From an uncultured Verrucomicrobiae bacterium (GTDB taxonomy: Bacteria; Verrucomicrobiota; Verrucomicrobiia; Chthoniobacterales; JAATET01): 64,000 nt of DNA. The notes under the pieces are model-generated. The model did no database searches. It saw nothing but the letters and a program-made list of their open reading frames with translations, and was not told the DNA's origin. The stretch covers positions 672,001 to 736,000 of the forward strand of contig CAVRCI010000013.1 of NCBI GenBank assembly GCA_963719495.1, given 5' to 3'. A program made the translations under genes and the position numbers. This document shows positions 3,805-35,351 of the stretch, piece by piece (within the stretch, counting starts at the first letter, position 1; each line of letters opens with the position of its first letter).

Positions 3805-4525
3805 ATGGAAAATCTTACATCCCTCCGACTCCGCAAGCTCGCTACAGCACTCGTGAATCCGGTGTGCTGGCGGCCGCTGGCCTGCGGGGTCGCGCCGACA
3901 GTGGATCATCTGCCCGTTCTCCGAAATCTGGATGTGGACCTGATCCTCGACGTCGGGGCGAATCGAGGTCAGTTTTCCCTCGCTAGTCGCATCGCTAAGC
4001 CGGGCTTGCCCATCGTTGCGTTCGAGCCGATTCCCGGCGAGGCAGCGTCTTTCGAAAGGTTCATGATGGGTGTCCATGCGTGCGGTTGAACGAGATCGCG
4101 CTCGGGTCGGAGGATGGCGACGGCAACGCTTCACGTGAGTCGTCGGGCGGACAGCTCGTCGCTCCTGCCGATCGGGCAAGGCACAGCGGGAGATTTTTTC
4201 AGGGACGGAGGAGGCGGGCACGATAGCGGTGCCAGTGCGGAGGCTGGATGGGTATTTGAGTGATCTCGGGGACTTTTCGAAAGGCCTGCTCAAGCTCGAC
4301 GTTCAGGGCTTCGAACTCAAGGTCTTGGAGGGCGCGACGGAGACGCTGACCCGCTGTGCCTACGTCTATGCGGAATGCTCGGCGCGGGAACTTTACGAGG
4401 GACAGGCTCTCTACGGTGAGGTCGCGGGATTTCTCGCCGAGCACGGTTTTCGTGAGATCTCGCGTCATAATGAAATGCTCATCGATGGGGATCTTGTCCA
4501 GGCGGATTTCCTTTTCGGGAGATAG
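3805..4525 (+). pseudogene. FkbM family methyltransferase, multiply frameshifted
   Basis: LDVGANRGQF, FEPIP, IALG, DSSSLLP, VRRLD and LLKLDVQGFELKVLEG motifs lie in different frames. Confidence 0.85.
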
Positions 4526-4527
4526 GT

Positions 4528-4660
4528 GTGATTTTGCCGCTGCTGGTGGAAGGACTGCAAATTTTCATTCCGACCCGGACAGCTTCGATGCTGGATGACG
4601 GTTGGGGTTGGCTCGGGGCGTTGATCGGGCTGGCAGTCGGACAGCTTTGCTGCCGTGGCT
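4528..4660 (+). pseudogene. VanZ-like C-terminal fragment (copy 1)
   Basis: EGLQIFIPTRTASMLD..WG.LGA motif; N-terminus missing. Confidence 0.6.
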
Positions 4661-4797
4661 GGTGGCGGATGACGAGAGCCAATGACAACAATACGAATAC
4701 GGTTTTGAACAGAAGGTAGCGAAGGTAGCGAAGGGATTCAGGGGGGAGTTTCTAATAACCAATAACCATGAACCAACAATCGTTTGTCGGGCGATAG

Positions 4798-4828
4798 GCG
4801 GAAGAGCTTTTGCTCTTCCGCTTTTTTT
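4798..4828 (+). terminator. Intrinsic terminator (related copy at ~28052-28082)
   Basis: GCGGAAGAGC-TTTT-GCTCTTCCGC followed by T7. Confidence 0.75.
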
Positions 4829-6931
4829 GTGTCTTGATCCGGGGGTGGGGAAGGGAAAATCAGTAGCGGTCGGAAAATGGTGGCTGCCGTTGTCCGTGGC
4901 GCTTGCGCTGACCGTCGGCTTCTTCGTTTCAATCTTCTTCCCGGTCCCGTTCGAGACTCACCCAAGAGCAGGCATCGGCTCGCGCGACGCGTCCCGCGCC
5001 GGAGCTCTCGACGCTCAACGCTCGACCCTCGACACCCCCCCCCTGACCTCCGGTTGGGGGGTCGATTCGATCCAATCAGCGGTCGTGCCGCTGGCTGAAC
5101 TGCGCAAGTTTATCGATCGGTTGGGCGATGGCCGCCTGCGCTATCTCCGCGAGCGGGGTCATCCAGCGGTCGATGATGCGGAGGCTTGGACTAAGGGAGT
5201 TTTTGCCTCGTATCGAAAGCTGCAGGCTGCCGGATACGACGTGGTCGGCTGGGCGGGCACACCGGGGCTGACGGCGAGTCATCCCTGGAACTCGCTGCCG
5301 GAGGATTTGCTGGCGGTCTACCGATCGGCGGAGGAATTGGGGCTGAGGACGGCAGATCTGGTGCGGGTCTGGGAGATGCCGAACGAACCGGATATCCTCT
5401 ACTGGGATCTGCCGGATCAACTCGTCGCCTATCAGAAGGCGCTTTATCTGGGTCTCAAGGATGGGGGGAGCGGTGCGGAGGGGCAGGATCAACGTGCAGA
5501 GATCGGAATTGAGCCGGGAGTGCTGATGGGGGCGCTGGGCTTATTTCCGGGGCCCTGGCTCGAGCGGGCGGCCGAGAATGGACTCTTCGACTACACGGAT
5601 GGCCTGAACCTTCATTTTTACGGTCATGCCCGGGACCTGCCGGGCGTCATCGAGTCCCAACGCGAGGTGGCGGCGAGGTGGGTCGACGACCGAAAACTGC
5701 CGGTGTGGCTGACCGAGGTCGGACTGAACGCCCAGCCGTACGGCGAAGTGGAGGACGCGCACGGTCGCGAGTTGCAGCGGGCCTTCACGCTGGAGACGGC
5801 GAAGACGGCGATCTCGGAGGGGGTGGCGGTGTTCATGCCCTTCGTTTTCGTGTAGCCGAACGACAGTTGGTGGGCGTTGGTGCGCGCGTACGGAGAGCCG
5901 TATCCAGCGTGGACGGAGTGACGCCAGGCTGACGCGCGAAGCGGAACTCCAGCGCCAACCGGCGCTGGCTCCTCCCGAGTCGGTGAGTCGGGTGGTTCTG
6001 CAGTGGCGGCCGGATTTCAAAACCTGCATTCCGCAGAAGGTGAGTGCCACCTACTGGTTTCGGGAAAATGGTGGGGTGGCTGAGGCGATGGAGGGGGATC
6101 TGGTGGTCTACAACCTGGCCGGGCACACCGTGGTGGGAGAGGTCGTGCAATGGCGGGGGACGGATTCCGGTGAGCGGTGGAGGCGAACGGTGGAAGTGCC
6201 GCCATTCTCTGCGGTGAGTTTGCCGGTCGAATTCGCTGGCGCGGATCAGGGGTATTCGCGGGAGAAGGTGCGATGGGGATTCGTGCCCCGGGGGGGGGAG
6301 CATCCCGAGTCGTGGTGCGTCATCGGGATCGAGACCCAGCCGAGCGCCGATCGATTGCCGAATGCGGTCGGCGTGCGCGGGACTCGTCCGGTCGGAGGAC
6401 TTCGAAGTGGGCACCAGCGGGGACTTCGAATGGATCTGGGCTCCGGAGCCGTTTGACGTCAGTTCCAGCGGAGGGCCATGGATTGGGATCAATGGTGTCC
6501 AAGTACGAACGAACTCAGAGGCGACAGCGGGGGATTTGGCGGCAGGGGCTGGATTCTCCGTTGACGAGGCGCAGACCAGTCCGACCCGGCCGACGATGGC
6601 GGTCACGAAAGTCGAGGGGCTGCCGACGGTGGAAAACGGATTCGTGCGATTGCGCTTTCCGCGCGGATTCCGGGGTTGGTTGCGGGTTGATCTCATCGAT
6701 GAGGTGGGACAACGCTTCACGGTGGCGCAGGGTCTTGGGCGCAATCCGCACCTGGAAAACGCCGACACCATCTGGCTCGGATACAAAGATTTCCACATCT
6801 ATTCCTTTGGACGGATCACGGGGGACCCGGTCTTCCGACCAGAGGCGATTCGCGAAATCCAACTCCGATTCTACGGGCAGCCCGGGGATGATCCCGTGCG
6901 GGTGAAGTTGGACGTGGTGAGTGACGAGTAG
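4827..6931 (+). pseudogene. Clan GH-A-like glycoside hydrolase, interrupted
   Basis: WEMPNEPD, LNLHFYG, PVWLTEVG motifs; TAG at 5853-5855 and later frameshifts split the C-terminal part; start uncertain. Confidence 0.65.
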
Positions 6932-7499: not shown

Positions 7500-7612
7500 A
7501 TGAATGCCGTCCTTTCTGAAAAAGGTCAGATCACCATCCCCAAGAAACTCCGCGACGACCTCGGGTTGCTTCCCGGATCGGTCCTGGACTTTCGGGAAGA
7601 GGCTGGCTCCGT
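7500..7612 (+). pseudogene. AbrB/MazE/SpoVT antitoxin, truncated
   Basis: MNAVLSEKGQITIPKKLRDDLGLLPGSVLDFREE, cut at the 70-bp motif. Confidence 0.8.
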
Positions 7613-8071
7613 CGAGGGGTCGGTCATTCATATTGACACATTTTCAGCCTTCGGCATCGGATGACTGGTGAATGATCATTGGTGGTTGGGTAGAGTTCTG
7701 GACAGAAGGGAAAAAAGAATGCGGCGTTTTTGAGTTTTCGGTGCGCGGGCCTTCCCTGCCCTCCGAAATCGGAATTGCCGCCGCGATCCTCTCCGAAGTC
7801 CAGCGTCGTAATCTCGCTACCAGCCGCCTACCACCTCAAACGCCCGGCTTGGCTCATTGTTGGCTCAGCGCGTGCACGACAAGGCATCCGAAGGAAAGGT
7901 GTGCTTGAATTGCAGCAGAAAAAGCTTCTCAACCTACCTGAGATGCGAGTACCCGTGATCTGTGGTTTGGGAGAAACGCCCCGGAGAAAATCCTTTCGAG
8001 GATCATCACAAGACTTACCGGAAGGCAAAAGAGCTGGTCAGCGGGATGTCAGAAGCAGATCTGGACACGGA

Positions 8072-8731
8072 TTGGATCCAGAACAAGCGATCGAACGGTG
8101 GCTCGCGTTCGCCTCGCAAGCCAGCCACGTTCGTGTCACCGGGCAGCGGCAATTTGTTTCGGATCTAGAGTTGATCGAGACCATGGACGCCGAGGCGGCG
8201 AGCCTTTACGCGTTCGTTCGGAGTGACGATTCGACATTTGTTTGCGACGTCCGCGAAGTTGTTCGGCGTGACCTGCCGATTCGCGAGGGCAATGAGCATC
8301 GAGTGTATCGCGCCAACCTCCGAGGAGAAGCACGCGTGATTAAAATCACCCATCCTGGCAAATATGGTCGACGAGAACACACTCCGTTCCAGTATCTCCT
8401 TCGATGGAAGCTGCTCAACCGATTTGCACCGATCATCGATGCCCGGTTGGAGGATTGCTTCATGACCGAGGAGGGCGACTTGTCAATTATCACGAGCATG
8501 CTGTATTTTGCTGGAAAGCACCCGGACGCACTGGTTGCCGATCAATTTGTCAAATCCTTGGGATTTCAACCCCTTCGCGATCCCAGCTCGACTCTCGACT
8601 ACGTGGACTGGAATCGAGGGTTGATCATTCGGGATTGCCATGCTGGTAATTGGATCGTCGCTGGTGACGCGCTGATTCCGATTGATATCATTCCCGAGCA
8701 AATCGGCTCATTGGATGCGGAGGATCACTGA
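8072..8731 (+). CDS. Putative polyvalent-protein-type Ser/Thr kinase (Kinase-PolyVal-like), copy 1
   Basis: GNEHRVY, KITHPG, TPFQYLLRW, DCHAGNWI, PIDII; start TTG 8072 inferred from alignment with copy 3 (ORF open from 7730). Confidence 0.6.
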   Translation: MDPEQAIERWLAFASQASHVRVTGQRQFVSDLELIETMDAEAASLYAFVRSDDSTFVCDVREVVRRDLPIREGNEHRVYRANLRGEARVIKITHPGKYGRREHTPFQYLLRWKLLNRFAPIIDARLEDCFMTEEGDLSIITSMLYFAGKHPDALVADQFVKSLGFQPLRDPSSTLDYVDWNRGLIIRDCHAGNWIVAGDALIPIDIIPEQIGSLDAEDH

Positions 8732-8827
8732 AGCACCGCTGCAATGATAGTCTGAATTCGGACCAGGTGAAGAGCTGACGGTTTCCCACGACAATTCGGG
8801 GAAGCGGCTCGAGGACGCGATCCGCGA

Positions 8828-8935
8828 TTGGTGGCAGGACTGCAAACCTACATCCCGCCCCGGACGGCTTCGATGCTGGACGTCGGTTGGGGGATCCTGG
8901 GAGCCTTCGGAGGATTCGCGATTGGTTTTACCCTT
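8828..8935 (+). pseudogene. VanZ-like C-terminal fragment (copy 2)
   Basis: GLQTYIPPRTASMLDVGWGILGA, homologous to 4528 fragment. Confidence 0.6.
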
Positions 8936-9852
8936 CTTTCGGTGAGATTGACCGCGAATCGACGCGAATTGACGCTAAGGTCAGGAGGCAGCGGCGACAC
9001 GCTCGGTCAAGCGGGAGTCAATGGCGGGTGACGGGGAGTTTCCAATAACCAATAGCTATCAACCAATTATCACCTCCGCCAGAGCGCGTCGGGTCGGGGT
9101 CGGGCGGCATGAAAGGCCGGGTCGGGGTCGGTCATTCATATTGACACATTTGGAGCTGTCGGCATCGGAGGACCGGTGGATGGTCACTGGTGGCGGGGGC
9201 AGCGGAACTTCAGTAATTCGGTAGTTCAGAGTTCGGAGGTCAGTGGGTCTTGAGCACAGCGCCGGTGACAGGGCGGTCGCGGGAGCGACCGAGTCAACGA
9301 AGGAAACGAAGGGTGAGAGTTCGGTTTCTGAGAGATCCGGGAATGCGGCCTGATGCCTAATCGAGCGCAGGGGTGCCAGTTTCGTCTCGGTTTCTGTGAC
9401 GATTCAGCTTCTTCGCTTCCTTCGCTCCCTCCTGTTAAAGATCGCATTGATTTTGTTGCGGGTTTGCCAAGGCGTGATGGGTCTGGTCGCGCTCAGTTTT
9501 CTGAGTGCCAGTTTTAAATTTTTCCCTGGCTGCCGACTTGGCTCACCGCTTGGGCAGCTTCGGGACTGATGAAGTTGCCCGCGAAACACGCGAATCGACG
9601 CGGATGCGTGACTCGTGAAAACGCGATCAATAAAACCGATGGGGTCAAATACGTGCAGAAATCCGAAATCAGCAGCCGGGTTGAGACTCAGCGGACTGAG
9701 TCGGTCGGCCCGGCACTGGATTCGGTTGGTCGGTTGCCGGGAATGAGGATCGTTACGGGCGGCGCGAAGTTTGCTCAGATAAACTGCGTGAGTCTGGACG
9801 ACTCCCGATCCTAGTATGCGGCCCCGATCTCACGACCGGGGCCATTTTTATT

Positions 9853-10629
9853 TTGCGAAACAATCATTTGACCATTCTCGGGATCCGCTTCGACGTGGGC
9901 GGATCGGACCTCGTGGGATCGTTGCGCGCGGGAGGACTCGTCCAAGTGCCCTCGGGCCCTGGGCTGGCCGACGATTTATCGAACCTTTCCGCCTACCGGG
10001 ACGCGTTGCTGGGCGCGGACTTCGTGATCCCGGACAGCGGGTTGATGGTCCTCGCCTGGAATCGGTTCCTGCGTCGACCGGACCAGCCGAGACTGGAGCG
10101 TTACTCGGGGCTGAAACTCCTTCGCGATCTCCTGCCGGAGGCCGACGTGAAGCGGGCGGGGGCGTCGTTCTGGGTGATGCCGACGAAGGCGGAACAGGAG
10201 CACAATCTGGCTTGGCTGCGAGGACGGAGTCACGCGCTAACCGATGACGATTGCTACCTGGCTCCTTATTACCGCGACCGTCTGGGACCGGACGGCGGGG
10301 TGACGGATGCGGAGTTGCTGGCGATGATCGAGCGTCGGAGGCCGGCCTACGTCTTCGTGAATGTCGGGAGCGGGGTGCAGGAACAGCTGGGCTGGTATCT
10401 GCGGAAGCACCTGTCCTACAAGCCGGCGATCCTTTGCACGGGCGCGGCCATCGCGTTTCTCACCGGCGGTCAGGCCCCGATCCCGCCGTGGGCGGACCGG
10501 TTCTACCTCGGGTGGTTGCTGCGGGTGATGCGGAATCCGGCTCGCTTCGGGTCGCGGTATCTGAGCGCGTTCAAGCTAGTGCCGTTGATGCTGAAGTATC
10601 GGGAGCGGCTGCCGCCGCTGAGGGGCTGA
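9853..10629 (+). CDS. WecB/TagA/CpsF family glycosyltransferase (only intact copy)
   Basis: ADFVIPDSG, VFVNVGSGVQE, CTGAAIAF, IPPWADRFYLGWLLR...P.RF..RY. Confidence 0.85.
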   Translation: MRNNHLTILGIRFDVGGSDLVGSLRAGGLVQVPSGPGLADDLSNLSAYRDALLGADFVIPDSGLMVLAWNRFLRRPDQPRLERYSGLKLLRDLLPEADVKRAGASFWVMPTKAEQEHNLAWLRGRSHALTDDDCYLAPYYRDRLGPDGGVTDAELLAMIERRRPAYVFVNVGSGVQEQLGWYLRKHLSYKPAILCTGAAIAFLTGGQAPIPPWADRFYLGWLLRVMRNPARFGSRYLSAFKLVPLMLKYRERLPPLRG

Positions 10630-10963
10630 GGGCCGGAAATACCAATGCGGGACTCGCGCAGAGGCGCAGAGGCGCGGAGAATGATGTAATTGCGGATGCG
10701 GAAGAACTGCGGGAATGTGAATACGGTTTTTGAACATACGATCGCAAAGTTCGCGAAGAGATGCAGCGGGATTGGCCGCAAAACGTCTTAAAAAGGGGTG
10801 ATGAGGAATACCAATACAGGGATTCGCGCGGAGGCGCAGAGACGCAGAGTTGCGAGTGGCGAGTGGCGAGTGGCGAGTGGCTGGGGTTGTTTCTGTCGAT
10901 TTGGCGGAGTCGAATAGTGGTTTGTGGCTGGTGGCGAGCAGACTGTCGTGAGAGAGTTTTGGA

Positions 10964-11320
10964 ATGAAGGTCGGAGAAGCTTCGCAATCGGGCATCGGTG
11001 ATGGTGGTGTCGATGAGTTCATCGCCGATACCGTATCCAGACTCCGGAAGGGTTTGACCCCGGACGCGATTTACTTGTTTGGATCCCATGCACGGGGCGA
11101 TACGACCCCGGACAGTGACGTGGATTTTCTGGTGGTGATTCGCAATTCTTCTCTTCCGCGGCATAGGCGTAGCCAGCTCGCGCGAGCCGTCGCGGCCAAC
11201 ACGTCGTTCTCCAAGGACATCGTGGTCCTCACTCGGGAGGAGTGGGAGCGGGGATTGAGGATTCCGGTTTCCCTGGCCAGCACGGTCCAGCGGGAGGGGC
11301 GACGATTGTATGAACGCTGA
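10964..11320 (+). CDS. Minimal nucleotidyltransferase (MNT) antitoxin, copy 1
   Basis: IYLFGSHARGD...DSDVDFLVV (GSX10DXD). Confidence 0.9.
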   Translation: MKVGEASQSGIGDGGVDEFIADTVSRLRKGLTPDAIYLFGSHARGDTTPDSDVDFLVVIRNSSLPRHRRSQLARAVAANTSFSKDIVVLTREEWERGLRIPVSLASTVQREGRRLYER

Positions 11321-11714
11321 CAAGGCCAGCGAAGTTGCAGCTTGGTTGGCAAAATCCTAACGTGATCTCGAGGCGGCGCGACTGCTTGCGAGCGCCGAGT
11401 CACCAAAGCGGGACGTCGCTGTTTACCATTGTCAGCAAGCGGCCGAGAAAGCAGTGAAGGCGTGGCTGGTGGCCCGGGACATTCCCTTTGCGAAGACGCA
11501 TGATCTTGAGCGGCTTCTAAAGATGGATGGCGAGACTGACGGGTTGGACTCTCTGGCTGAAGCCGCCAGGCTACTGACACCCTATGCGACCGAATTTCGA
11601 TATCCCGGAGATGTCTTCGAACCGGAGCCATCCGAGTGTGATGAGGCTATTGCAATGGCAGCTGGAATTATCGAACAGATAGTCGAAATGGTCGATGGGT
11701 TGAGTGACGAGTGA
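11310..11714 (+). pseudogene. HEPN domain toxin with premature TAA
   Basis: W..K..DL..A, YHCQQAAEKAVKA, KTHDL, RYPG; TAA at 11358-11360 where paralog has CAA. Confidence 0.85.
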
Positions 11715-11960: not shown

Positions 11961-12976
11961 GAGCATTAGTCCCGTGGTGGCGGGACGAGGCAGACTGCAC
12001 CGGCTCTGCAGAGCAGCCCGCAGGGCAAGACGAGCGGGAGCGAGCGAGTCATGCGGTCGAGGGGTCGGTCATTCATATCGGCACATTTTAAGCCTTCGGT
12101 ATCGGATGACTGGTGAATGATCATTGGCGGCGGGGATGCAGACTTCAGCTTCTTCGTTCCCTTCGTTTTCTTCTGTAAAAATCGCATTGATGTTGTCGCG
12201 GGTTCGCCAAGTTGTGATCGGTCTGGTGGCGCTCAGTTTTCTGAGCGCCATTTTAGATTTTTTTCTGGCTGCCGACTTGGCTCACCGCTTGGGCAGCTTC
12301 GGGACTGATGAGGTTGCCAGCGAAACACGCGAATCGACGCAAATGCGTGACTCGTGAAAACGCGATCAATAAAACCGATGGGGTCAAATACGTGCAGAAA
12401 TCCGAAATCAGCAGCCGGGTTGAGACTCAGCGGACTGAGTCGGTCGGCCCGGCACTGGATTCGGTTGGTCGGTTGCCGGGAATGAGGATCGTTACGGGCG
12501 GCGCGAAGTTTGCTCAGATAAATTGCGTGAGTCCGGACGACTCCCGATCCTAGTATGCGGCCCCGATCTCACGACCGGGGCCATTTTTATTTTGCGAAAC
12601 AATCATTTGACCATTCTCGGGATCCGCTTCGACGTGGGCGGATCGGACCTCGTGGGATTGCTGCGCGCGGGAGGACTCGTCCAAGTGCCCTCGGGCCCTG
12701 GGCTGGCCGACGATTTATCGAACCTTTCCGCTTACCGGGACGCGTTGCTGGGCGCGGACTTCGTGATCCCGGACAGCGGGCTGATGGTCCTCGTCTGGAA
12801 TCGGTTCCTGCGTCGACCGGACCAGCCGAGACTGGAGCGTTACTCGGGGCTGAAACTCCTTCGCGATCTCCTGCCGGAGGCCGACGTGAAGCGGGCGGGG
12901 GCGTCGTTCTGGGTGATGCCGACGAAGGCGGAACAGGACCACAATCTGGCTTGGCTGCGAGGGCGGAGTCACGCGC

Positions 12977-14463
12977 TGTCGGCGACTGTTCAAAAGCGGA
13001 ATTCTCGCCTGTTCAAAAGCGAACAGCGATTTTAGAGGCTGAAGTGGCCTAGAATGGGGGGCCAGACGGTTTTGGGAGGGTGTTCGACGACCCAGAAACG
13101 GCTTCCGGGATGGTGGACGATGGTGACGCTCTTGCGCTGGGTGTTGGAGATCTCGTAGTTGGAGCCATCGAAGTCGATGGTGTGGTCATTGTTCACCCGG
13201 CGGGAGCAGCGGATTGAGAGGTGTAAGTCTAGGAGCGCGGAAGGCGGGATGGGGCGCATGCGCCCGCTGTCGCCAAGCGACTGCGCTTCCCACAGATGGA
13301 GCGGGACCTTGCCGGTGGAGCGATTGACGGTACGGTTCTGCCTGGCAATCTCCATCTGAAGAATTTCGTCGGCCTGGGGCCAAGTTTTGGCGCTGGCATG
13401 GGCGAGTAGTGTGACGAGCCGTCTCTGGAAAGTCCCGAAACGGCGCTCGATCTTACCCTTAGCTTGTGGGGTCGGTGCCACTAAGTGAGCGACGCCGAGT
13501 CCGCGGAGGGCGCGTTGGAATTCACTCTTAGGATCGCAGTGATCGCCGCTGGAACTTGGCCCGAAGAGGCTGAGGCCATCAGTGTAAACGATCTGCGGCA
13601 GGCCCCAGGTCTCGAAGGATTCGCGGAAATGTCCGAAATGGTTCCAAGTGGTATCGGATTCCACGAAGCGACCTGCTAGATTCAGGCCCGAATGGTCGTC
13701 GACGGTGAGCAGTAAAGTCTGTTTAGCGGCGGCGGGCCACCATTGGTGGATCGAACTGTCGTGCTGCCAAAGTTCGCCGATGCGAGCGCGACGGAAGCGC
13801 CGATAAACGCGAGGCTTGCGGGTCGGCGAGGGCACCAGATGGGCGTAGCGCGCTTTGACGTGGGTCTCGACGACCGAGCGCGCCCGAACGAATCCGCAGA
13901 GTCGCTCAAGTTCGTCGGCGACTAACTGGTAATTGGGTGGGTTCTGAAGCGGCAGAAACTCTTGGAGAAAGCGTTCAACTTCGGGCGGCCAGTCGGCGCG
14001 ACGAGCGCCCCCGCTGGCAGCCGGGGCGTAGGAATTACGATTTGCGAGGTAGGCCGTGCGGAGTTCATAGAGCCTGGTTTTGCCGATGCCTAACTGGCTT
14101 GCGGCATTGCTGGCATCGAGAAGTCCTGCATTGAAATCTGCAAGTGTGCGACGGACTAAATCTGGCGGGAGACGGTGGGTAATCTGCTTCTTTTCAATCC
14201 GGGATAATCGACCAGGCGAGCGCGCAAGCCAGCGCGTTCCACAAACGCTTCACCCCAACGGCTGGTATCCTTGGGGCACTGGGGCCGGGGAGCAGGCGCG
14301 CACGCGGGAAGCGCCTCTCCGTCAGCCTCCGCTACGCTCCGGCCTCCTCCGAGGCGCTTCCCGCGTCTCCCAATACAACGCCCCAAAACCCCCAATCCAC
14401 TTTTGAACAGTCTCTCATTCCGCTTTTGAACAGTCTCCGTTCACTTTTGAACAGGCCCCGACA
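12977..14463 (-). mobile_element. IS1202/ISNCY-like insertion sequence, copy 1 (1487 bp, 16-bp TSD)
   Basis: TIRs TGTCGG.G.CTGTTCAAAAG; repeated subterminal CTGTTCAAAAG; TSD GGGCGGAGTCACGCGC at 12961-12976 and 14464-14479. Confidence 0.9.
13032..14198 (-). CDS. DDE (rve-type) transposase with N-terminal HTH
   Basis: LWQHDSSIHQW, VDDHSG, YTD, PQAKGKIERRFGTFQ; frame open to ATT at 14198 including HTH-like AASQLGIGKTRLYEL; start uncertain. Confidence 0.85.
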   Translation of the reverse strand: MEKKQITHRLPPDLVRRTLADFNAGLLDASNAASQLGIGKTRLYELRTAYLANRNSYAPAASGGARRADWPPEVERFLQEFLPLQNPPNYQLVADELERLCGFVRARSVVETHVKARYAHLVPSPTRKPRVYRRFRRARIGELWQHDSSIHQWWPAAAKQTLLLTVDDHSGLNLAGRFVESDTTWNHFGHFRESFETWGLPQIVYTDGLSLFGPSSSGDHCDPKSEFQRALRGLGVAHLVAPTPQAKGKIERRFGTFQRRLVTLLAHASAKTWPQADEILQMEIARQNRTVNRSTGKVPLHLWEAQSLGDSGRMRPIPPSALLDLHLSIRCSRRVNNDHTIDFDGSNYEISNTQRKSVTIVHHPGSRFWVVEHPPKTVWPPILGHFSL

Positions 14464-24742: not shown

Positions 24743-24804
24743 GAGTTGCAGTTCACGCTTTAAGAGGCCCTGCGCGATTGGTGGACCGATTGCGGGGAGA
24801 AGGG
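24743..24804 (+). pseudogene. Epimerase C-terminal micro-fragment
   Basis: ELQFTL*EALRDWWTDCGEKG vs ELQFRLEEALRDWWMDCGEKG at the end of 20895-21913; bracketed by heptamer tracts. Confidence 0.7.
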
Positions 24805-26042: not shown

Positions 26043-26294
26043 ATGAAGACGAAATTCACTTTTTGGCAAGAGGCTGACGGAAAATATTTGGGATACTTGA
26101 ATGACTATCCAGATCACTGGACTCAGGGCGACGACATGCAGGATCTAAGAGAACAGCTCGTTGATCTCTTTTCGACTTTCTCTTCCGAGAGCTTGCCCGG
26201 GATTCGAAGCTCGAGATCGCTTGAAACGCCGGGATTTGATCACAAACATCGAAGCGGCTGGCTGCCTTCTTTTACGGCACGGTTCCCGCCATGA
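26043..26294 (+). CDS. HicB-like antitoxin (C-terminus probably frameshifted)
   Basis: GYLNDYPDHWTQG...L...L.DL; likely native end LEIA* at 26224 is out of frame. Confidence 0.7.
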   Translation: MKTKFTFWQEADGKYLGYLNDYPDHWTQGDDMQDLREQLVDLFSTFSSESLPGIRSSRSLETPGFDHKHRSGWLPSFTARFPP

Positions 26295-26403
26295 TATTTA
26301 TCACAACCCAGCGACAGGGGTATCTCAGCCGGTTCCACGTCACCGAGAAATCAATGAGATCCTTGCAAAGAAGATCATCAGAGATCTGACGAAATTTGAG
26401 TAG
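26221..26403 (+). CDS. HicA family toxin
   Basis: MKRRDLI...GC...RHGSRHDIY.NP...VPRHREI. Confidence 0.9.
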   Translation: MKRRDLITNIEAAGCLLLRHGSRHDIYHNPATGVSQPVPRHREINEILAKKIIRDLTKFE

Positions 26404-27001
26404 TGAATCCAATCGAACCGTTGCTTCCTTAAAAAAATTCCCTCCGCGTCTCAGCGCCTTTGCATCGAGGGGTCGGTCATTCATATTGAAACATTTGGAG
26501 CTATCGGCATCGGATGACTGGTGAATGATCATTGAGTGGCGGGGATGCAGACTTCAGCTTCTTTGCTTCCTTCGCTGTCTTCTGTTAAAGATCGCATTGA
26601 TTTTGTCGCGGGTTTGCCAAGTTGTGATCGGTTTGGTCGTGCTCAGTTTTCCGAGCGTCATTTTTAATTTTTGCCTGGCTGCCGACTTGGCTCACCGCGT
26701 GGGCAGCTTCGGGACTGGTGAGGTTGCCAGCGAAACACGCGAATCGACGCGGATGCGTGACTCGTGAAAACGCGATCGATTGAACCGATGGGGTCAAATA
26801 CGTGCAGAAATCCGAAATCAGCAGCCGGGTTGAGACTCAGCGGACTGAGTCGGTCGGCCCGGCACTGGATTCGGTTGGTCGGTTGCCGGGAATGAGAATC
26901 GTTACGGGCGGCGCGAAGTTTGATCAGATAAACTGCGTGAGTCCGGACGACTCCCGATCCTTGTATGCGGCCCCGATCTCACGACCGGGGCCATTTTTAT
27001 T

Positions 27002-27793
27002 TTGCGAAACAATCATTTGACCATTCTCGGGATCCGCTTCGACGTGGGCGGATCGGACCTCGTGGGATCGCTGCGCGCGGGAGGACTCGTCCAAGTGCCC
27101 TCGGGCCCTGGGCTGGCCGACGATTTATCGAACCTTTCCGCTTGCCGGGATGCGTTGCTGGGCGCGGACTTCGTGATCCCGGACAGCGGGTTGATGGTCC
27201 TCGCCTGGAATCGGTTCCTGCGTCGACCGGACCAGCCGAGACTGGAGCGTTACTCGGGGCTGAAACTCCTTCGCGATCTCCTGCCGGAGGCCGACGTGAA
27301 GCGGGCGGGGGCGTCGTTCTGGGTGATGCCGACGAACGCGGAACAGGAGCACAATCTGGCTTGGCTGCGAGGACGGAGTCACGCGCTAACCGAGGAGGAC
27401 TGTTACCTGGCGCCCCTTGTATCGTGACCGATTGAAGCCGACGGTGGGGTGGAAGATGCGGAGTTGCTTGCGGTGATCGAGCGTCGGAGGCCGGTCTGCA
27501 TCTTCGTGAATGTCGGGAGCGGGGTGCAGGAACAGCTGGGCTGGTATCTGCGGAAGAACCTGTCTTACAAACCGGCGATCCTTTGCACGGGTGCGGCGAT
27601 CGCGTTTCTCACCGGTGGGCAGGCCCCGATCCCGCCGTGGGCGGATCGGTACTATCTCGGGTGGTTGCTGCGAATTCCGAGGGACCCGAAGCGCTTCGGG
27701 CGACGGTATCTGAATGCGTTCAAGCTCGTGCCGCTGCTGGTTAAGTATCGAGAGCGGCTGCCGCCGCTGAGGGGCGCAGCGGAGTTGCGGTGA
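27002..27793 (+). pseudogene. WecB/TagA/CpsF glycosyltransferase copy 4 (chimeric, frameshifted)
   Basis: 5' half near-identical to copies 1/2; break near 27420; 3' end resembles copy 3. Confidence 0.85.
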
Positions 27794-28492
27794 CGAGCTT
27801 CGGGAATGCGAATACGGTTTTTGAACAGAAGGTAGCAAAGGTCACAAAGGGATCCAGGGGTGGCTAGTGACGCGTGGCGCGTTGGATCTGACCCGTCACC
27901 GGCTACTCGTAACCCGCAACTCATCGCCATTCCTCCGCGTCTCGGCGCGAGATGACTTCCTCTCAACTCTCAACTGGGGCGACCGGGTCCGAGAGCGGTA
28001 TTTCCAATAACCAATAAATACCAACTATGAACTGGGACCGAAGATCGCAAAGGCGGGAGAGTTTGCTCTTCCGCCTTTTTTGTGCCGGGATGGCGGTTGG
28101 TGGGGCTGGGACGGCGTTGGGTTGGTTGATGGATGGATAGGCGGCGCGTCGGGAGGAGGCGACGGCGGGTTTGGCAAAACCGCCCTACCAATTGGGAAGA
28201 TGGGACCGTTTGCCAAACGGTCCGTGGCTGGGGTCAGCTCCGCTTCCCTCTTTCCTCTTCCCTCGAATTCCAGTCGACCAATAACCATCAACCGCGTGCG
28301 CAGCGCGCAGATCCTGTCCGGTCGGTAATTGTTGCGAAAGATAGTAGTCGAAAGGTCCGGGAGGAGGCGCTACCGTCCTCTCGTTGAAACTGATACGGTT
28401 GTGCGATGGAATCCGTTTGGGGAACTGACTCCGATTTACGAAGAGGCGAGGAAGCAATCGCAGGCCGGGACGGAGGCGGAGATCGATGCGGA

Positions 28493-28804
28493 TTGGATTT
28501 CGAACAAGCGATCCGAGAATGGCTCGACTACGCGGCGCGGACCGGACACCTACGTATTACCGGCAAGCGGAAATTTGCTTCGGATCTAGAACTCATCGAA
28601 ACAATGGAGGCGGAGGCCGAAAGCCTCTTCCAATTCGCCCGGGCAATCGGTCTCGATTTGTCCGAATCACTCGATGAAATCATTCACCGAACTCTCCCGA
28701 TCCGTACTGGGAATGAACACCGGGTCTACCGCGCGACGGTGGCGGGAAGGCGGCGCTTCATTAAGATCACCCATGCGGGCAAGTATACCGGATCAACAGG
28801 ATGA
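28493..28804 (+). pseudogene. Polyvalent-type kinase copy 3, truncated
   Basis: SDLELIETMEAEA, LPIRTGNEHRVYRA, IKITHAGKY homologous to copy 1; ends after the N-lobe. Confidence 0.7.
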
Positions 28805-29074: not shown

Positions 29075-29540
29075 ATGCGTATCTACATCGAGACAACGAT
29101 TCCGAGCTACTTGACCGCCAACAGGGCCCGCGAAGTCGTCCAAATTGCTCTCCAACAGACAACGAAGGACTGGTGGTAGACCGAACGAGAGAAACACGGT
29201 TTGGATACTTCCTTGATCACTCTTCAGGAAGCGGGCGGTGGGGATTCTGAGGCTGCTCAACGCAGACTTGGTAGTTCTCAAGGGGATTCCGCTATTGGAG
29301 ATCACGCCTGAGGTCGAAGGAATGACATCTTCAATTGTGGATTCAAGGATATTGCCGCCCACAGCCGAGCGTGACGCTGCCGACGTCGCTGTTGCTACCT
29401 ACCATGAACTGGATATTATCCTGACTTGGGACTGTCGTCACATTGCCAACGCAACCATCCGTAAGCCTCTACAGAAGTTGATCGAATCGCTCGGCTACGA
29501 GCTTCCAATTATTTGCACGCCAGAGGAACTAATCTCATGA
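29075..29540 (+). pseudogene. PIN domain toxin with internal TAG and frameshift
   Basis: MRIYIETTIPSYL...QQTTKDWW*...AAQRRL / ...LTWDCRHIAN...ICTPEEL. Confidence 0.8.
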
Positions 29541-29779
29541 TCACCCAGGACTTCCCGTCAATTGCAGACGAGACAATGAAAGAAGTGTGGGAAATTAAGG
29601 ATTCTCTTTCACGAAGGTATAATCATGACGTTGGTTTACTTTTCAAGGGTCTGTACACAGAGCAGGCCTCCGACAGTGAGAACACGGTCAATTTGAAACG
29701 GAAAAATGCGGCCCAACGAAGTGCTGCATCTCGCGCAGAGGCGCAGGCGCGGAGGGGGTGGCTGGTGACGGGTAGCTGA
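29537..29779 (+). CDS. Small partner protein of PIN gene (putative antitoxin)
   Basis: ATGA overlap; DETMKEVWEIKD helical motif; C-terminus runs into repeat. Confidence 0.55.
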   Translation: MITQDFPSIADETMKEVWEIKDSLSRRYNHDVGLLFKGLYTEQASDSENTVNLKRKNAAQRSAASRAEAQARRGWLVTGS

Positions 29780-29840: not shown

Positions 29841-30122
29841 TCACTCCTGGAGGCGCGATTGAAACACTTCGTAGACCCACCTCCGACTTTCGAGGAAGAC
29901 ACAGGTGATGGTGCGCGTTCCTTCAATGAAATCATACTGAAAGATCACCCGATAGCTGCCGACTCGACGGCGAAAGTAACCGTCGAGTTCGTCAACTAGC
30001 GGTCTGATGTCTCCTCGTTCTTCGCTCAGGCCTTTGATCGCCAATCGGATGGCGTGCCTTGGTTTGGGTGGGAGGCGACGGAGAGTCTCGAGCACGTCCT
30101 GCTGAACTCGGATCCTGATCAT
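29841..30122 (-). CDS. RelE/ParE family toxin
   Basis: Paralog of 25392-25667 (RLAI..L, DI..L, VGSYRVIF, R..VYE). Confidence 0.8.
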   Translation of the reverse strand: MIRIRVQQDVLETLRRLPPKPRHAIRLAIKGLSEERGDIRPLVDELDGYFRRRVGSYRVIFQYDFIEGTRTITCVFLESRRWVYEVFQSRLQE

Positions 30123-30367
30123 ATGTCATCGAGGGCGGAGACGTCGTGGTAAATGGCCTGACCGGCTTCGTGAGCGCGAATCGCGGTCATGGCTGCGGGA
30201 CTACTCAGGATTTCCATTGTCTCAGAAATGGCCTCCATTCGGTCGATCGAGATCAGAACCGCGACCGCTTTTCCTTGGTTGGTGATGGTGACCGGGTGAT
30301 CCAACGACTCTTTGACGACGGCGGAAAAACGCTGTTGGGCAGTTTTGATGGTGTAGGAATCGGCCAT
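30119..30367 (-). CDS. Phd/YefM family antitoxin
   Basis: YTIKTAQQRFS..V, PVTIT..GK.VAV, ETMEIL; upstream palindrome CACCCTTTTC...GAAAAGGGTG (~30380-30403). Confidence 0.85.
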   Translation of the reverse strand: MADSYTIKTAQQRFSAVVKESLDHPVTITNQGKAVAVLISIDRMEAISETMEILSSPAAMTAIRAHEAGQAIYHDVSALDDI

Positions 30368-30839
30368 GACACAAAATTACACCCTTTTCTCTGGAAAAGG
30401 GTGATGAAATTCTCGATTCAACTTTTAGAGTTTCCGAGTTTTTAGGTTCTGAGCATCGAGCCGCGGGAGCGGCTGAGGCAGACTGCGTCGTCGAAGGGTC
30501 GTCGAAGACTCGGTCATTCGTATTGACGCATTTTGAGCTTTCGACGTCGGATGATCGTTGGTGGCGGGAATGCGAAATCCGGGTTCTTCGCTCCCTTCTG
30601 TCGAAGATCGCATTGATTTTGTCGCGGGTTTGCCAAGTTGTGACCGGTCCGGTGGCGCTCAGTTTTCTGAGCGCCATTTTTTATTTTTCCCTGCGGGCTG
30701 CGCCGCATCTTGGGGAGATTGCCTGGCTGCCGGTTTAGCTCACCGCGTGGGCGGTTTCTCGCTCGGGTGAAGATTTACGGACGGCAGTGCCGTTTCTGCT
30801 GCTCGATGAGACGACGGGGCTGTTGTCGCGGTCCGGGCG

Positions 30840-30965
30840 GCGCGTGATCGTTTCAGCGGTGGTGCTCGTTGCCTTGGTGGTCCTGATCGAAGGCGCGCAG
30901 TATTTTGTTCCCGGTCGCACGGCGTCGAACCACGACGTAGGATGGGGGTCGCTTGGCGGATCGTC
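30840..30965 (+). pseudogene. VanZ-like fragment (copy 3)
   Basis: LIEGAQYFVPGRTAS..DVGWG. Confidence 0.6.
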
Positions 30966-31132
30966 TGATTGTCTCTTGGGTGTTTGCTGCGGAAACTTGG
31001 CGGGCGCGTTTATCCGTTGAGGACGAGCGAAGTTTAGCCGCAAGCACCGGAGTCGTGGGACGGCTCGGGGCAGACTGCATTGGCTCTGCAATGCAGCCCG
31101 CAGGGCGAGACGAGCGGGAGCGAGCGAGTCAA

Positions 31133-31888
31133 CACCGGACGCCGGGGCACCCTGAGCACGAGCATTCCGAGACAAACCTGCGCGGAGCGGAGAATGCGTG
31201 TGCCTTCGCCCGGGAGCACGATGTGCGGACGATTGTGTTCAGGAGTTCGATCGCGCCTTACGGGGCCTCGGAGCCGCTCAAAACCGAGGACACTTTGCCG
31301 CTGCCGAATACGGCTGACGGGATTTCGAAGCTGGTGGCGGAGCACATTCACCGGACGTGGCAGGCGGGGCGACCGGACGAGCGTCGGCTCGTGATCGTGC
31401 GGCCGGGGGTGGTCTTTGGTGCTGGCGAGGGCGGGAACGTCACGAGATTGGCGGGGTCGATGGCGCGGAAGCGATTTGTGTATCTGGTGCGCAAGGACAC
31501 GATCAAGGCGTGCATCTACGTGAAGGACGTGGCGCGCCTGTTGGCTGAAATGGCCGCGAGGACCGAGCCGGGCGTGTTTTTGTATAATCTGACTTACGAG
31601 CCCGCTCCGACGATCGAGGGGATTTGCGGGGCAATCTCGCGAGTGACGGGTGCGCCGCTGCCGAAGCTGGTTGTGCCCGGCTCGATGTTGCGAGCGGTCG
31701 CAGCGGTCCTTAAGCCGCTGCAGGGTCTTCTCGGAGAGGGCTTTCATCCTGACCGGGTGAAGAAGCTCATGGTCTCGAACAACATGGCGGGCCGGAAGCT
31801 CCTGGATGACGGCTATCGACTGGAGTTCAGCCTCGAGGAAGCACTCCGCGACTGGCAGCAGGACTGCGTGGGTGGTGATCTAGTTTAG
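31133..31888 (+). pseudogene. NAD-dependent epimerase, 5'-truncated paralog
   Basis: Starts at HRTPGHP right after the ~90 bp element; catalytic YGISK changed to DGISK; 3' end diverges from 20895 copy. Confidence 0.85.
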
Positions 31889-32088: not shown

Positions 32089-32358
32089 TCAACCCTCAAC
32101 CCAGGAGTTCCGTAGCGGGTCTTCACCGAACTGGCACTGGATCAACCGGACGAACCTGCGAGCATGCTCGATCTCTGGAAATGCGATATCGGTCGCGGTC
32201 AATAATGCCTTCAGCATTTTCTCCGCTGCCTGCTGGCAAAGATAGACGCCGGTGTCGAGTCGCTGCCTGAAACCTTCGATCAGGATCTCGGCGGTTTCGA
32301 GATCGCTGGAAGCCTTGTCGATCCACGCCTGGACCAATTCCCGCTTTTCAGCGTTCGT
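32089..32358 (-). pseudogene. HEPN toxin copy 3 (start ATG->ACG, 3' truncated)
   Basis: W..KA..DL..A, YLCQQAAEKMLKA; ends at CTCAAC(T/C) heptamer tract. Confidence 0.75.
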
Positions 32359-32690
32359 AGAGAAGGCGTCCCTCCCGCGCCACCGAACTGGCCAGAGAGA
32401 CGGGCACCTTGAGTTGGCGTTCCCATTCCTCCTTGGTGAGCACGATCACGTCTTTTGGCACGCGGATATCGGCGACGAGCTCGAGGGCCTCGACCGGGCG
32501 CTGATACCGGGATTTCGACGACGTTGGAACGACGGCGAGGAGATCAATGTCACTGTCGGCTGTGGCCGCTCCCCGGGCAACGGAGCCAAACAACCAGATC
32601 GCATCGGCCGCCATCGCGCTCCCCAGCCGATTGGAGACCAGCTCGGCAAGTTCCGGAAGCCGACCGGTCCATTGAAAGGCTGTCGACCGA
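32348..32690 (-). CDS. MNT antitoxin, copy 3 (divergent, start uncertain)
   Basis: IWLFGSVARG...DSDIDLL; C-terminal SLAS.V.REGR.LYER shared with copies 1/2. Confidence 0.85.
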
Positions 32691-33427
32691 TCCGCGTTGC
32701 CGGGAGGTGAAAGTGCCTTCACGGCTGAGACGCTATCCGATAGCGGGTCAATCCAAAGAGAACATCCAAAGAGAAATGACGCGCTTGACCGCGGTGCCCG
32801 TGGTGGCGATTGGCGCCACGATGAGGGAGGAGAGCGGGTTGGAGCCGCCTCGCCGCGCAGGGGTTGAGTGAATGGGATGTCGAAGATGAGACCGGAAAAC
32901 AGGACCTGGCAAAAGGCTGGCCCGCGCATTGCCGACTTCGGCGGCAGGATGGCGCCGCTCCTTGGAAGGACCTCCGACCTCTCCTCTCAGCCCTTGACCA
33001 CCCGACCTCCGCCGCCCGACCTTTGACCTCCCCTCGTCTCCCACCGATCCCGGTCGCAGGCTTCTCGCCTGTGGCCTTTTTTTGTGCCCTGATGAGGCGA
33101 TGATTCGGGTTGCGGTGTGATTTTTGTTGCTGGTGGGCAGCTGGCTCCTGTCGGGCTGTGGGGATTTGGAGATGGGTTGGCCAACGCACGAGGGCGTCGA
33201 TGGGTCGACGCTTGAGCAACAGGCTCAATCTGCGGCGCGGACGCTCCTCCTGCTGCGAGCTCACCCGCGGGTGAAGGGGGGCTGGTGGAAATGGCACTGT
33301 TTTAAGCCGATTTTCGGTGAAGAGCGCAAGGCGGTGAGGACGGCTTGGAGGCCGTCCCGCGCGAGATCATCGGCAACCGGGGTCTTTTCGATCAACGCTG
33401 GCGGTGTTGGTGGGGTGAGCGCGAAGT

Positions 33428-33518
33428 TGTAGCGGCGCGTCTGTGACCGCCGCGAACCATCTCGCTGGGTTCACGCACCCGGGTTTGACGACTCCGGCGG
33501 TCACAGACCGCCGCTACA
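33428..33518. repeat. GTAG-type REP doublet
   Basis: TGTAGCGGCG..TCTGTGACCGCCG and its inverse; also 39936-40025 and a single copy at 48316. Confidence 0.85.
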
Positions 33519-33785
33519 GTCGTGCCGACGATTCGCTTAAAACAGTGCCATTCGGGTCTGGTGGCGAGAGCCGATGACAACAATACGAATGCGGTTTTGA
33601 ACAGAAGGTCGCGATGGAAGCGAAGGGATTCATGGGTGGAGTGTCCAATAACCAATAAACTACCAACCAATAACTTGGGGGAAGTCTGACGGCTGAACTT
33701 CTGACATCCTGCCCTCGCCACGCGCCACGCGCCCGCTTTTCCTGAGTTTGAGATCGGGATCTGGCCGTGGGAATTGTGCCGCGGC

Positions 33786-35351
33786 TCAGAACTTGATCCC
33801 GGCGCCGAGGACGATGCCGGATTCGGCGACCTGATAGACGACGCCCGTGCGCTCGTAGTCGACGTAGTAATAGCGGTAGCCGAGTTCGCCGAAGATGTTG
33901 CGGGTGAAATTCACGCCGACCGAGCCGTTGAGGTTCCACGCGACCGACGAGCCGGCTCCGAAGCCGCCGACGTCGCATTGCGTGGATAGATACAGCCAGC
34001 GCGTGAGGTTCACCTGTGCACGGACGCCGACGATGGGGTCGACCCACCAACGGTCGCCGTCCGCGCGCGTCGGCAGTTCGTCTTCGAGCTTCTTGGTGAT
34101 CGCTTTGGCCAGCTTCTTCTCGGCCTTCGCGACGTCGGCTTCCAGTCCCTTGGTGTCGACCGAGCGGCTCAGGTCGTCGCGGTTGGCTTCGGCCGCGGCG
34201 AGGCGGGCGCGGGAGGCGGCGACGAGCGAGCGGGCGGCTTGGCGTTCCTCGCGGCCGGCTTGGTTGATTGTCTTCTCGAGGAGGCGCTCGGCGGCGTCGA
34301 CGCGTTGTTGGCCGAGGGCGACGACTTCGTCCGCGAGGCGGGCGGCAGTGGCGGTCCGGGCCGTGGCGACCTGCTGGCGGACGCGGGCCTCGACGAGGTC
34401 GCGGAATTCCCGCCGCACCGGCTCGAACACGCGGTCCAGTGCGCGGCGGTCGAGGGTCCGCCGGACTTCGCGCGGCGCCTCGGCCCAACGCTCGACCAAC
34501 GCGACGCCGACGTCGCGGCGGACGTCCGCGCGCACCGCCTCGCGCACGTCGTCGAACCGGGCGACGTCCGCGGTCACCCCGCTCTGGAGTGCGTCGGTGA
34601 GTTGGGTCTGCAAGGTCTGGAGGCGGTCGATGTCGGCGCGTTCGCCGCGCCGGATTGCGCGCTGGATTTCCCGCTGCACGTCGTCGAGTCGGGTCGCTGC
34701 AGCCGCCCGCGCGTTGGCCGCGGCGGCGGTGGCCTGGTCGCGCAATTCGGTCGCGCGGCGGGTGATGAGTCGATCCGTCGCCTCGGCGAGGCGGTTGGAG
34801 ATGCGTTCGCTGGTGTCGTCGCCGACGCGGGCGATGCCGCCGGCGTCCTGGTCGGCGCTGACGGTGAGGCCGAGGTAATTGTAGCGCGCGCCGACGTAGA
34901 AATCGACGAAGCCGCGCCGATCCTCGATGAGGCGGTAGGCGAGCGCGAGCTGACCCACGCCCTGCTGGACGCCGACGCTGGCGGATTCGTAAAGGGTGCC
35001 TCCGAGGTCGCCGTCGGCCTGGAGGTCGACGAAGAAGCCGTCGGCTAGCAATCCGAAGCGCCCGTAGCGCGCCTCGCCCTCGAGGAACGCGCCCCAGCGG
35101 AGGTTCGCGATGAGCGTCCGCGCGCTGTAGTCGATGTGGCTCGCGGGGAGTCCGCGCACGCCGACGTCTCCGGCCAGCGAGGGGAGCCAACCGTAGGGCT
35201 GGATGGAGAACGACCACGGGGAGTCGCGGGACTCCAGCACGGTGATCTCTTTTCCGGGATACGGGTCGGTGTCGAAATCGAGTGATCCCGTTCCGGCCCA
35301 CGCCGACGCGGTGGCGAGCAGGCCAAATGTGGCGGCGAGGCGAATGCTCAT
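33786..35351 (-). CDS. Outer-membrane beta-barrel protein with long helical insertion
   Basis: Signal peptide; PYGWLP, GARYNY, WVDPIVG, DVGGFGAGS, C-terminal F. Confidence 0.75.
   Translation of the reverse strand: MSIRLAATFGLLATASAWAGTGSLDFDTDPYPGKEITVLESRDSPWSFSIQPYGWLPSLAGDVGVRGLPASHIDYSARTLIANLRWGAFLEGEARYGRFGLLADGFFVDLQADGDLGGTLYESASVGVQQGVGQLALAYRLIEDRRGFVDFYVGARYNYLGLTVSADQDAGGIARVGDDTSERISNRLAEATDRLITRRATELRDQATAAAANARAAAATRLDDVQREIQRAIRRGERADIDRLQTLQTQLTDALQSGVTADVARFDDVREAVRADVRRDVGVALVERWAEAPREVRRTLDRRALDRVFEPVRREFRDLVEARVRQQVATARTATAARLADEVVALGQQRVDAAERLLEKTINQAGREERQAARSLVAASRARLAAAEANRDDLSRSVDTKGLEADVAKAEKKLAKAITKKLEDELPTRADGDRWWVDPIVGVRAQVNLTRWLYLSTQCDVGGFGAGSSVAWNLNGSVGVNFTRNIFGELGYRYYYVDYERTGVVYQVAESGIVLGAGIKF

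Follow-up and report, generated by a model that had tools for sequence, protein, structure and literature searches.

How toxin-antitoxin (TA) modules of several classes come to be collected at one chromosomal site, and how they change order there, is the question raised by a ~29-kb region (positions 4500–33800) of a Verrucomicrobiota genome. The window, as we call the whole 64,000-nucleotide stretch analysed here, corresponds to C13:672001–736000 of genome G000 (4.5 Mb in 16 contigs), and we compared it with five congeneric genomes (G001–G005), four of which (G001, G003, G004 and G005) carry a comparable form of the locus. A preliminary description of the window had proposed an integron-like platform in which short-period repeats join TA modules and pieces of polysaccharide genes. 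We find that related species exchange and reorder units at this single locus, that the window holds an eroded version of the array, and that the best candidate for the joint is a hairpin-forming repeat, here called site A. The swapping and reordering apparently rely on a recurring DNA hairpin instead of an integron integrase, and defence or addiction genes may here be stocked and shuffled by a route that has not been described before.

Site A and the joints of the array

Site A is a ~75-bp hairpin in which an octamer right arm (CTCTGCG words) is followed by a directional, AT-rich loop and then by an octamer left arm (CGCAGAG words); as single-stranded DNA it folds with z −4 to −8. The same arms flank one group of GxxExxY nuclease genes. 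In the best-preserved relatives, G003 and G004, direct repeats of site A are chained, separated by empty spacers of ~80–110 bp, by two-gene TA modules or by a GxxExxY gene. Sites in both genomes alternate with empty units of ~145–175 bp, with TA modules and with the GxxExxY gene (TIGR04256; L047:19425–19805 in G003, L064:2046–2426 in G004), whose arms are identical to those of the array. A arms flank both sides of 7 of 12 modules in G003 and, likewise, of 7 of 12 in G004. The spacers between sites recur as near-copies and reach lengths of up to 1.5 kb, and no cas family was found in scans of the region; a CRISPR array was rejected on this basis.

Reading one strand of the loci, we counted 39 full copies of site A in G003, 11 in G004, five in G000, four in G005 and three in G001. 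Orientation was taken from searches of both strands, in which every exact match falls within this locus and on one strand (4/4 in G000, 16/16 in G003 and 6/6 in G004); the same was true of all 40 of 40 matches in a further both-strand search, and of 8 of 8 in a scan of the G000 genome. Because G000 has few full sites and few A-bracketed modules compared with G003 and G004, we regard the window as an eroded version of the array. Site A is represented in the window by the following copies:

25770–25850, plus strand: site A, the sole complete copy in the window (hairpin z −6.7)
17303–17347, plus strand: loop and left arm of site A; the right arm at 17248 is interrupted
22126–22170, plus strand: loop and left arm of site A; the right arm at 22071 is interrupted, and an empty arm-to-arm unit (21953–22087) lies just before it
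10637–10672, plus strand: left half of site A after the WecG stop codon, with a second left half at ~10812–10845

The empty unit at 21953–22087 belongs to a ~153-bp type that is common in G003.

No exact copy turned up outside the genus in the genomes searched: the 11 other members of the family gave none, and among 301 genomes of the order a looser pattern matched G003 alone. A looser hairpin occurs at 56 genome loci from several phyla and at 50 metagenome loci, mostly alone; screened with 24 query proteins, TA cargo adjoined it at 0/56 and 1/50 of these loci, respectively. An unrelated Verrucomicrobia metagenome-assembled genome (JAJFLQ010000079.1, L111:3700–7500) also has an array of octamer-arm hairpins, which includes empty units, a two-gene unit without a name and a putative TA system, the DUF4160/DUF2442 pair; this TA-like cargo was recognised by reading and Pfam, outside the 24-query screen.

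To locate the joints, we used 33 merged cross-genome breakpoints (capped extensions and an end made by an insertion sequence, IS, were excluded), 30 of which are intergenic, with random intergenic positions as the null. Words of the A arms lie within 10 bp of 9 of the 33, against 2.7 expected (p 0.001), where the word lists were picked after the breakpoints had been seen, the breakpoints are not mutually independent, and alignments naturally run on through shared repeats. Repeats thus seem to mark the joints, though as arms of site A and not as the short-period repeats originally named. Breakpoints were no nearer to strict 7–9-bp tracts than random intergenic positions were (n = 33, p 0.14–0.69), hand-picked heptamer words marked 6/33 against 2.9 expected (p 0.06), and 9-bp doublets marked 1/33 against 1.1 expected; both types of repeat were rejected as unit boundaries. 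The other two repeats put forward as boundaries fared no better. A 90-bp element behaves as a genome-wide passenger, with 66 of its 70 genome copies outside the region, four inside (at the BLAST threshold used) and two toxin genes hit; a 70-bp motif begins with a repeat that elsewhere brackets a transposase gene, and as a whole folds no better than its shuffles (z ~0.4).

Units exchanged between congeneric species

The ~29-kb array is real but does not stand alone. Another TA sub-array lies at C13:646–662 kb, ~15 kb upstream of the window and downstream of an exosortase gene, and contains MNT-HepT (seven MNT genes), HicBA, PIN, DUF6036, UPF0175/DUF3368 and a four-helix-bundle gene. It also contains four full copies of site A, and parts of both the four-helix-bundle gene and the backbone gene downstream are duplicated in it; the gene that follows the sub-array is presumably EpsI-like. 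MNT genes are concentrated here, with 10 of the 12 MNT matches in the genome falling within C13:647–705 kb (seven of them upstream of the window), while PIN genes are dispersed over the genome, with 3 of 30 in the locus.

The units of the locus, listed by hand in five genomes (n = 80), group into 44 clusters, 19 of which are common to at least two genomes, mostly at 90–98% identity. Between G000 and the same relatives, gyrB and gyrA are 80–88% identical, and therefore the units were exchanged after the species split. Modules keep their orientation while changing order between species, and 6 of 60 adjacencies recur, confirming the earlier impression of units shuffled without a recombinase in cis; the structure of the locus is not identical across genomes, which removes one objection anticipated at the outset. 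Unit U16, an antitoxin/PIN pair, occurs once each in G001, G003 and G004 and at this locus only, and a search for the module set elsewhere in G000 gave a single weak match (70%).

Genes and repeats of the window

Pfam scans of 342 stop-to-stop frames of at least 55 amino acids (18 frames within the second ISNCY-like copy were left out) detected MNT/HEPN three times, PIN three times, Phd twice, HicA, AbrB/MazE and Kinase-PolyVal twice, in both orientations. Together with tblastn, these scans uphold the patchwork described earlier: there are 11 TA-like modules of four superfamilies (a count that includes the broken module at 29075–29779, which has no Pfam name) and three kinase genes or fragments. 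The modules comprise four intact pairs, two altered ones and five in which the toxin is lost or broken. The Phd partner at 25392 is RelE-like (ESM Atlas 0.96), and the partner of the second Phd is 42% identical to it; the third kinase is a fragment, 50% identical to kinase 1. TA and kinase genes cover 28% of the region, backbone pieces 26% and IS 14%. No integrase or recombinase, reverse transcriptase or Cas family was matched in the region by Pfam scans of the listed frames, so their reported absence holds locally, although the genome carries an integron integrase on another contig. The array and its modules are:

4500–33800, no strand: eroded second TA sub-array of the exosortase-linked polysaccharide locus
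7500–7612, plus strand: AbrB antitoxin, cut off exactly at the 5' edge of a copy of a repetitive extragenic palindromic (REP) motif; its PIN partner is lost (kept in G004 and G005)
7730–8731, plus strand: Kinase-PolyVal kinase 1, 72% nucleotide identity to a G005 unit
10964–11714, plus strand: MNT-HEPN, with a stop at HEPN codon 17
15282–15918, plus strand: AbrB-like/PIN pair, intact, 94% to G004 and G005
17514–18196, minus strand: antitoxin/PIN pair U16, intact; 98%, 96% and 95% to G001, G003 and G004
19990–20820, plus strand: MNT-HEPN duplicate; the 90-bp element interrupts HEPN, with an identical insertion in G001
22275–22940, plus strand: Kinase-PolyVal kinase 2
24064–24719, minus strand: antitoxin/PIN pair with a remnant of the 90-bp element in PIN; 90% to G003
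25141–25667, plus strand: Phd/RelE pair, intact
26043–26403, plus strand: HicB/HicA unit U20, present in all five genomes (89–98%); HicB is frameshifted here; A arms on both sides
28406–28804, plus strand: kinase fragment
29075–29779, plus strand: broken two-gene module, PIN-like by eye only, without a Pfam or NCBIfam match
29841–30367, minus strand: Phd/RelE pair, intact
32089–32720, minus strand: MNT-HEPN; HEPN has an ACG start and is truncated

Interspersed with these modules are pieces of the polysaccharide backbone. Every tblastn match to VanZ (4528–4647, 8822–8959 and 30625–31034), to the epimerase (21024–21907, 24743–24802 and 31082–31867) and to the four WecG copies lies on the plus strand, in agreement with the preliminary description. 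A suggested link to surface variation, in contrast, finds no support: three of the four WecG copies are broken, the epimerase copy at 20895 is frameshifted, and the broken backbone copies look like debris.

9853–10629, plus strand: WecG/TagA copy A1, the sole intact copy of four; the block is repeated at 12144–14868 (split by an IS) and 26553–27775 (frameshifted)
23036–23826, plus strand: WecG/TagA copy B, broken and divergent, 63–75% identical to A in its 5' part and 85–95% in its 3' part
20895–21913, plus strand: epimerase, frameshifted; second copy at 31133–31888 and stub at 24743–24802
30625–31034, plus strand: VanZ-like gene; further 3' pieces at 4528–4647 and 8822–8959

At the left end of the region, an FkbM methyltransferase gene (3805–4525) and a glycoside-hydrolase-like gene (4827–6931; labelled by reading, without a Pfam match) are seemingly broken by frameshifts or stops.

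Several mobile and repeated sequences are also present:

12980–14466, minus strand: ISNCY-like IS with TGT...ACA ends, below the NCBIfam cut-off; eight genome copies, the second copy here at 18234–19716
16000–17220, minus strand: IS630-family IS; six genome copies
14922–15012, plus strand: 90-bp element
7611–7690, plus strand: 70-bp motif; six copies, starting at 7145, 7611, 9119, 12056, 26464 and 30501

All three IS have clean target duplications: that of the two ISNCY-like copies, which are 99.9% identical to each other, is unusually long at ~16 bp, and that of the IS630 copy is TA/CTAG. The second IS is missing from the homologous junction in G001, and the earlier reading of the IS as late passengers stands. 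The 70-bp motif is complete only at this locus (6/6). Its first ~30 bp are a REP-like repeat that occurs 44 times genome-wide, often as inverted pairs, one of which brackets a 311-amino-acid Y1 transposase gene (C13:309596–310597; PF01797 match; 12 Y1 matches in the genome). Within the array each REP copy stands alone, always on the same strand, and the REP-like motif heads the WecG duplications. Tandem rows of period 7 number 616 genome-wide over 158 bins of 30 kb, in which the bins of the locus rank as the top three (14, 13 and 11); these rows, mostly of four to five copies and often in inverted pairs, resemble four-helix-bundle arms without a gene. The 9-bp doublets match arm words of other GxxExxY groups within the genus. 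At 33290–33552 lies a 260-bp element whose terminal inverted repeats enclose a REPIN-like pair, with nine genome copies and an inverted copy in the G001 array, and a 262-bp unit is repeated in tandem at 49579–50558 (3.7 copies, 98% matches).

Mechanism and known systems

How are the units exchanged? On balance, we favour homology-driven exchange at repeats and backbone anchors, in the manner of the neisserial NIME arrays discussed below. Homology-directed exchange is favoured because none of the 19 shared clusters has left its own sub-array, even though site A is present in both, and because tracts of high identity reach into the exosortase gene, which is 94–98% identical between G000 and G004, against 59–90% in upstream windows, and rises from ~85% to 92–99% at its 3' end between G000 and G003. 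It is also favoured because the WecG copies are mosaic (copy A4 is 96–100% identical to A1 in its 5' half and 95% identical to B at its 3' end) and because the ends of HicBA differ between genome pairs, with four left and four right positions. The array may have originated by tandem expansion of an arm-bracketed GxxExxY element, after which the repeats and flanking backbone genes would act as portable homology. DNA from a congener, or a sister chromosome, would recombine there by RecA-type crossover, so that whole units are gained, lost or duplicated, and such crossovers would leave pieces of WecG, VanZ and epimerase on the plus strand as backbone debris. Retention of TA modules by addiction is established TA biology, and by this route modules would pile up here, the loss of an active one being lethal or costly. 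In G000, the sites would then have eroded, arms of other GxxExxY and four-helix-bundle families, the Y1-associated REP, the 90-bp element and IS would have moved in, and many toxins would have died.

Several observations weigh against homology-driven exchange at site A. The GxxExxY unit U27 and the PIN unit U16 are shared nearly exactly from site to site between G003 and G004, the identical cassette ends expected of a fixed crossover, whereas the ends of HicBA are variable. The loop of site A is conserved and strictly directional, which would also suit a site-specific enzyme. A arms on both sides are found at 2/25 modules in G000, 0/9 in G001 and 1/18 in G005. The exact site was found neither in the viral contigs searched (0) nor in the metagenome contigs (0), and no route of DNA entry was seen. 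Finally, the TA cluster of G002 follows another exosortase gene and lacks site A, and therefore the site is not required for TA clustering. That cluster (L209:11200–17800, C4) comprises DUF433, PIN, MNT and HEPN, with heptamer tracts.

We attach a lower probability to an integrase-free cassette system in which the A-armed GxxExxY protein, a predicted PD-(D/E)XK nuclease, would recognise the arms, nick or cut the hairpin and move units bounded by arms, among them TA modules. In such a dedicated system, the REP-headed motif may be handled likewise by a Y1/RAYT-like transposase. Conceivably, each GxxExxY group recognises its own arm word and cuts between tandem arms, and modules are captured, amplified and traded in an integron analogue made of a PD-(D/E)XK nuclease and host recombination. 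Under this nuclease reading, the window could, rather speculatively, be an array decaying after loss of its cognate nuclease. A-armed GxxExxY proteins do cluster on a tree of 32 rows (proteins of less than 85 amino acids were left out), with 3 label changes against 10.4 when shuffled, a clustering that is partly ascertained since the outside rows were found by searching with the arm; other GxxExxY groups bear other arm words found in the window. The genomes with an A-armed gene in the array hold the most sites (39 and 11, against 5, 4 and 3). The looser hairpin adjoins a GxxExxY gene at 6 of 50 metagenome loci and 2 of 56 genome loci, and on one metagenome contig (L196:1–800) the gene is followed by four arm hairpins with a ~146-bp period, resembling the empty units of G003. 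A GxxExxY cassette between gyrB and gyrA in G000 (C14:136015–136353) has a full-length match in G001 and G002, with a gene at the same spot in G005, and is absent from G003 and G004. The cut of AbrB exactly at the REP edge also fits. Candidate trans factors would be the GxxExxY nuclease and, for the REP-headed motif, the Y1 transposase, whose gene lies between REP copies; in G000 arms were seen by eye at 4/4 GxxExxY (TIGR04256, PF13366) and 8/9 four-helix-bundle (PF05635) matches, but none of the four GxxExxY genes carries A arms, as would be expected if the nuclease had been lost. On the other side, shared units never cross between sub-arrays, and G005 and G002 carry an A-armed gene elsewhere, yet the array is eroded in G005 and missing in G002. 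A 6-bp duplication in the loop, a possible cut footprint, is weakly tied to cargo (9/11 against 23/48, p 0.05). A search of the PDB with the GxxExxY protein of the array returned nothing significant, and the literature searched held no report of an activity for the family. Homology-directed exchange and a nuclease-driven system can combine, the nuclease coexisting with the favoured explanation as its initiating step.

It seems unlikely that TA pairs and repeat families of several kinds have each gathered on their own in a hypervariable polysaccharide locus acting as a neutral hotspot for insertion, which would make this an ordinary TA island with the repeats as passengers. Mixed-class TA islands are known (PMC2701414, in the text available), heptamer tracts, the 90-bp element and REP all occur genome-wide, PIN genes are not concentrated at the locus, the TA genes of G002 cluster in the absence of site A, and most modules in the window lack A brackets. 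Such an island would leave unexplained the regular alternation of site and unit in G003 and G004, the confinement of the sites to one locus in one orientation, the enrichment of arms at breakpoints, and the similar layout around the DUF4160/DUF2442 pair in the unrelated MAG (metagenome-assembled genome). Mis-assembly of strain variants in this metagenome-derived genome might in principle underlie the long duplications, namely the three WecG-A blocks and the two MNT-HEPN copies, which are 97–100% identical in parts; many genes are frameshifted, and the best sequencing run found contains only 0.28 of the sampled words. We nevertheless judge it very improbable because several junctions (U16 to MNT-HEPN to epimerase, and HicBA to REP) are seen again in G001, which was assembled independently; moreover, the copies differ by 3–8% overall with different lesions, and the relatives have backbone stubs and duplicated units of their own.

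An integron remains to be considered. In attC sites, complementary R boxes close a hairpin after cassettes. The genome encodes an integron integrase, IntI, on contig C2 (TIGR02249, 425.6 bits, above the cut-off), which could act in trans only, and site A folds into a hairpin; the locus might accordingly be a CALIN, an attC array without an integrase of its own that is served in trans. As a positive control, an attC scan beside IntI gave nine matches, equal to six distinct sites, upstream of the gene, whereas it gave none in sub-array 1, none in both G003 arrays and three in the window, all inside the glycoside-hydrolase-like gene. Site A has no R-box pair, and units stand in both orientations with their own upstream regions. 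We consider a CALIN scarcely credible, and the integron-like mechanism originally proposed is not supported. Around the integrase itself (C2:166000–177350), at least six attC-like sites of 126–127 bp lie upstream, and a ~290-bp tandem repeat follows the gene.

Literature searches, which did not cover subscription papers, yielded no account of such arms linking TA modules into arrays, and the available text of PMC5581495, PMC3184786 and PMC6393860 describes no such arrays. The arrays constitute a compact library of TA pairs on which phage defence could be tested, with 44 unit clusters in five genomes that include MNT-HepT, DUF433/DUF5615, UPF0175/DUF3368 and DUF6036 pairs, and the GxxExxY family gains a candidate natural substrate and cargo.

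The closest parallels each share part of this organisation. Tight clusters of mixed-class TA pairs were described as toxin-antitoxin system (TAS) islands by Makarova et al. (2009, PMC2701414) and attributed to preferential insertion or to transfer of multi-TA cassettes, with their assembly left open in the available text. Mixed-class pairs are closely spaced here too, with four superfamilies in the window and MNT, not PIN, concentrated; the main text of PMC2701414 gives no boundary sequence or mechanism (the words 'repeats', 'integron' and 'polysaccharide' are absent from it), whereas this locus offers a specific joint, a concrete boundary sequence and units shared across species. The array may thereby provide a mechanism for TAS islands, and its well-preserved (G003, G004) and decayed (window) versions make the assembly of TA islands testable.

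Integron arrays and CALINs likewise place a hairpin-forming site in one orientation between variable units, are rich in TA modules and differ in order between relatives; unlike them, this locus lacks attC boxes and a neighbouring IntI, carries units in both orientations, has a seemingly variable crossover position and co-duplicated backbone genes, and keeps its units to their sub-array. With the REPIN-RAYT system, as described in the available text of PMC5581495, it shares a motif whose 5' half is scattered over the genome, often in inverted pairs, and brackets a Y1 transposase gene, and site A, in a looser form, is itself a hairpin dispersed in several phyla; in contrast, the REP copies of the array are single and on one strand, and the gene linked to site A encodes a PD-(D/E)XK protein instead of an HUH transposase. 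Paired sites of tandem octamers and heptamers on opposite strands in Geobacter metallireducens, read as regulator binding sites in the available text of PMC2700814, have the same arm architecture as the GxxExxY and four-helix-bundle cassettes here. In that text they are linked to no gene family (the alignments in its Figures S3–S5 may show related arms), whereas here the arms are chained into TA-carrying arrays.

The locus appears to work most like the neisserial NIME arrays, in which, according to the available text of PMC1797815, dRS3 repeats alternate with RS spacers and which are treated there alongside minimal mobile elements. Both consist of a short inverted repeat alternating with spacers of 50–150 bp, are syntenic and variable in length, and lie near surface genes, and NIME arrays were proposed to aid recombination with incoming DNA by homology or by a repeat-specific recombinase (PMC1797815). 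The same source regards NIME arrays as specific to Neisseria; site A is unlike its dRS3 consensus and the host belongs to the Verrucomicrobiota, so that the locus would resemble NIME arrays in its working without being a member. It differs in phylum and repeat, in having whole TA modules and a nuclease gene as units, in the confinement of the site to one locus, and in exchange between species that are 12–20% diverged. If only homologous recombination acts here, this would still be a NIME-like mechanism outside Neisseria that moves whole gene modules.

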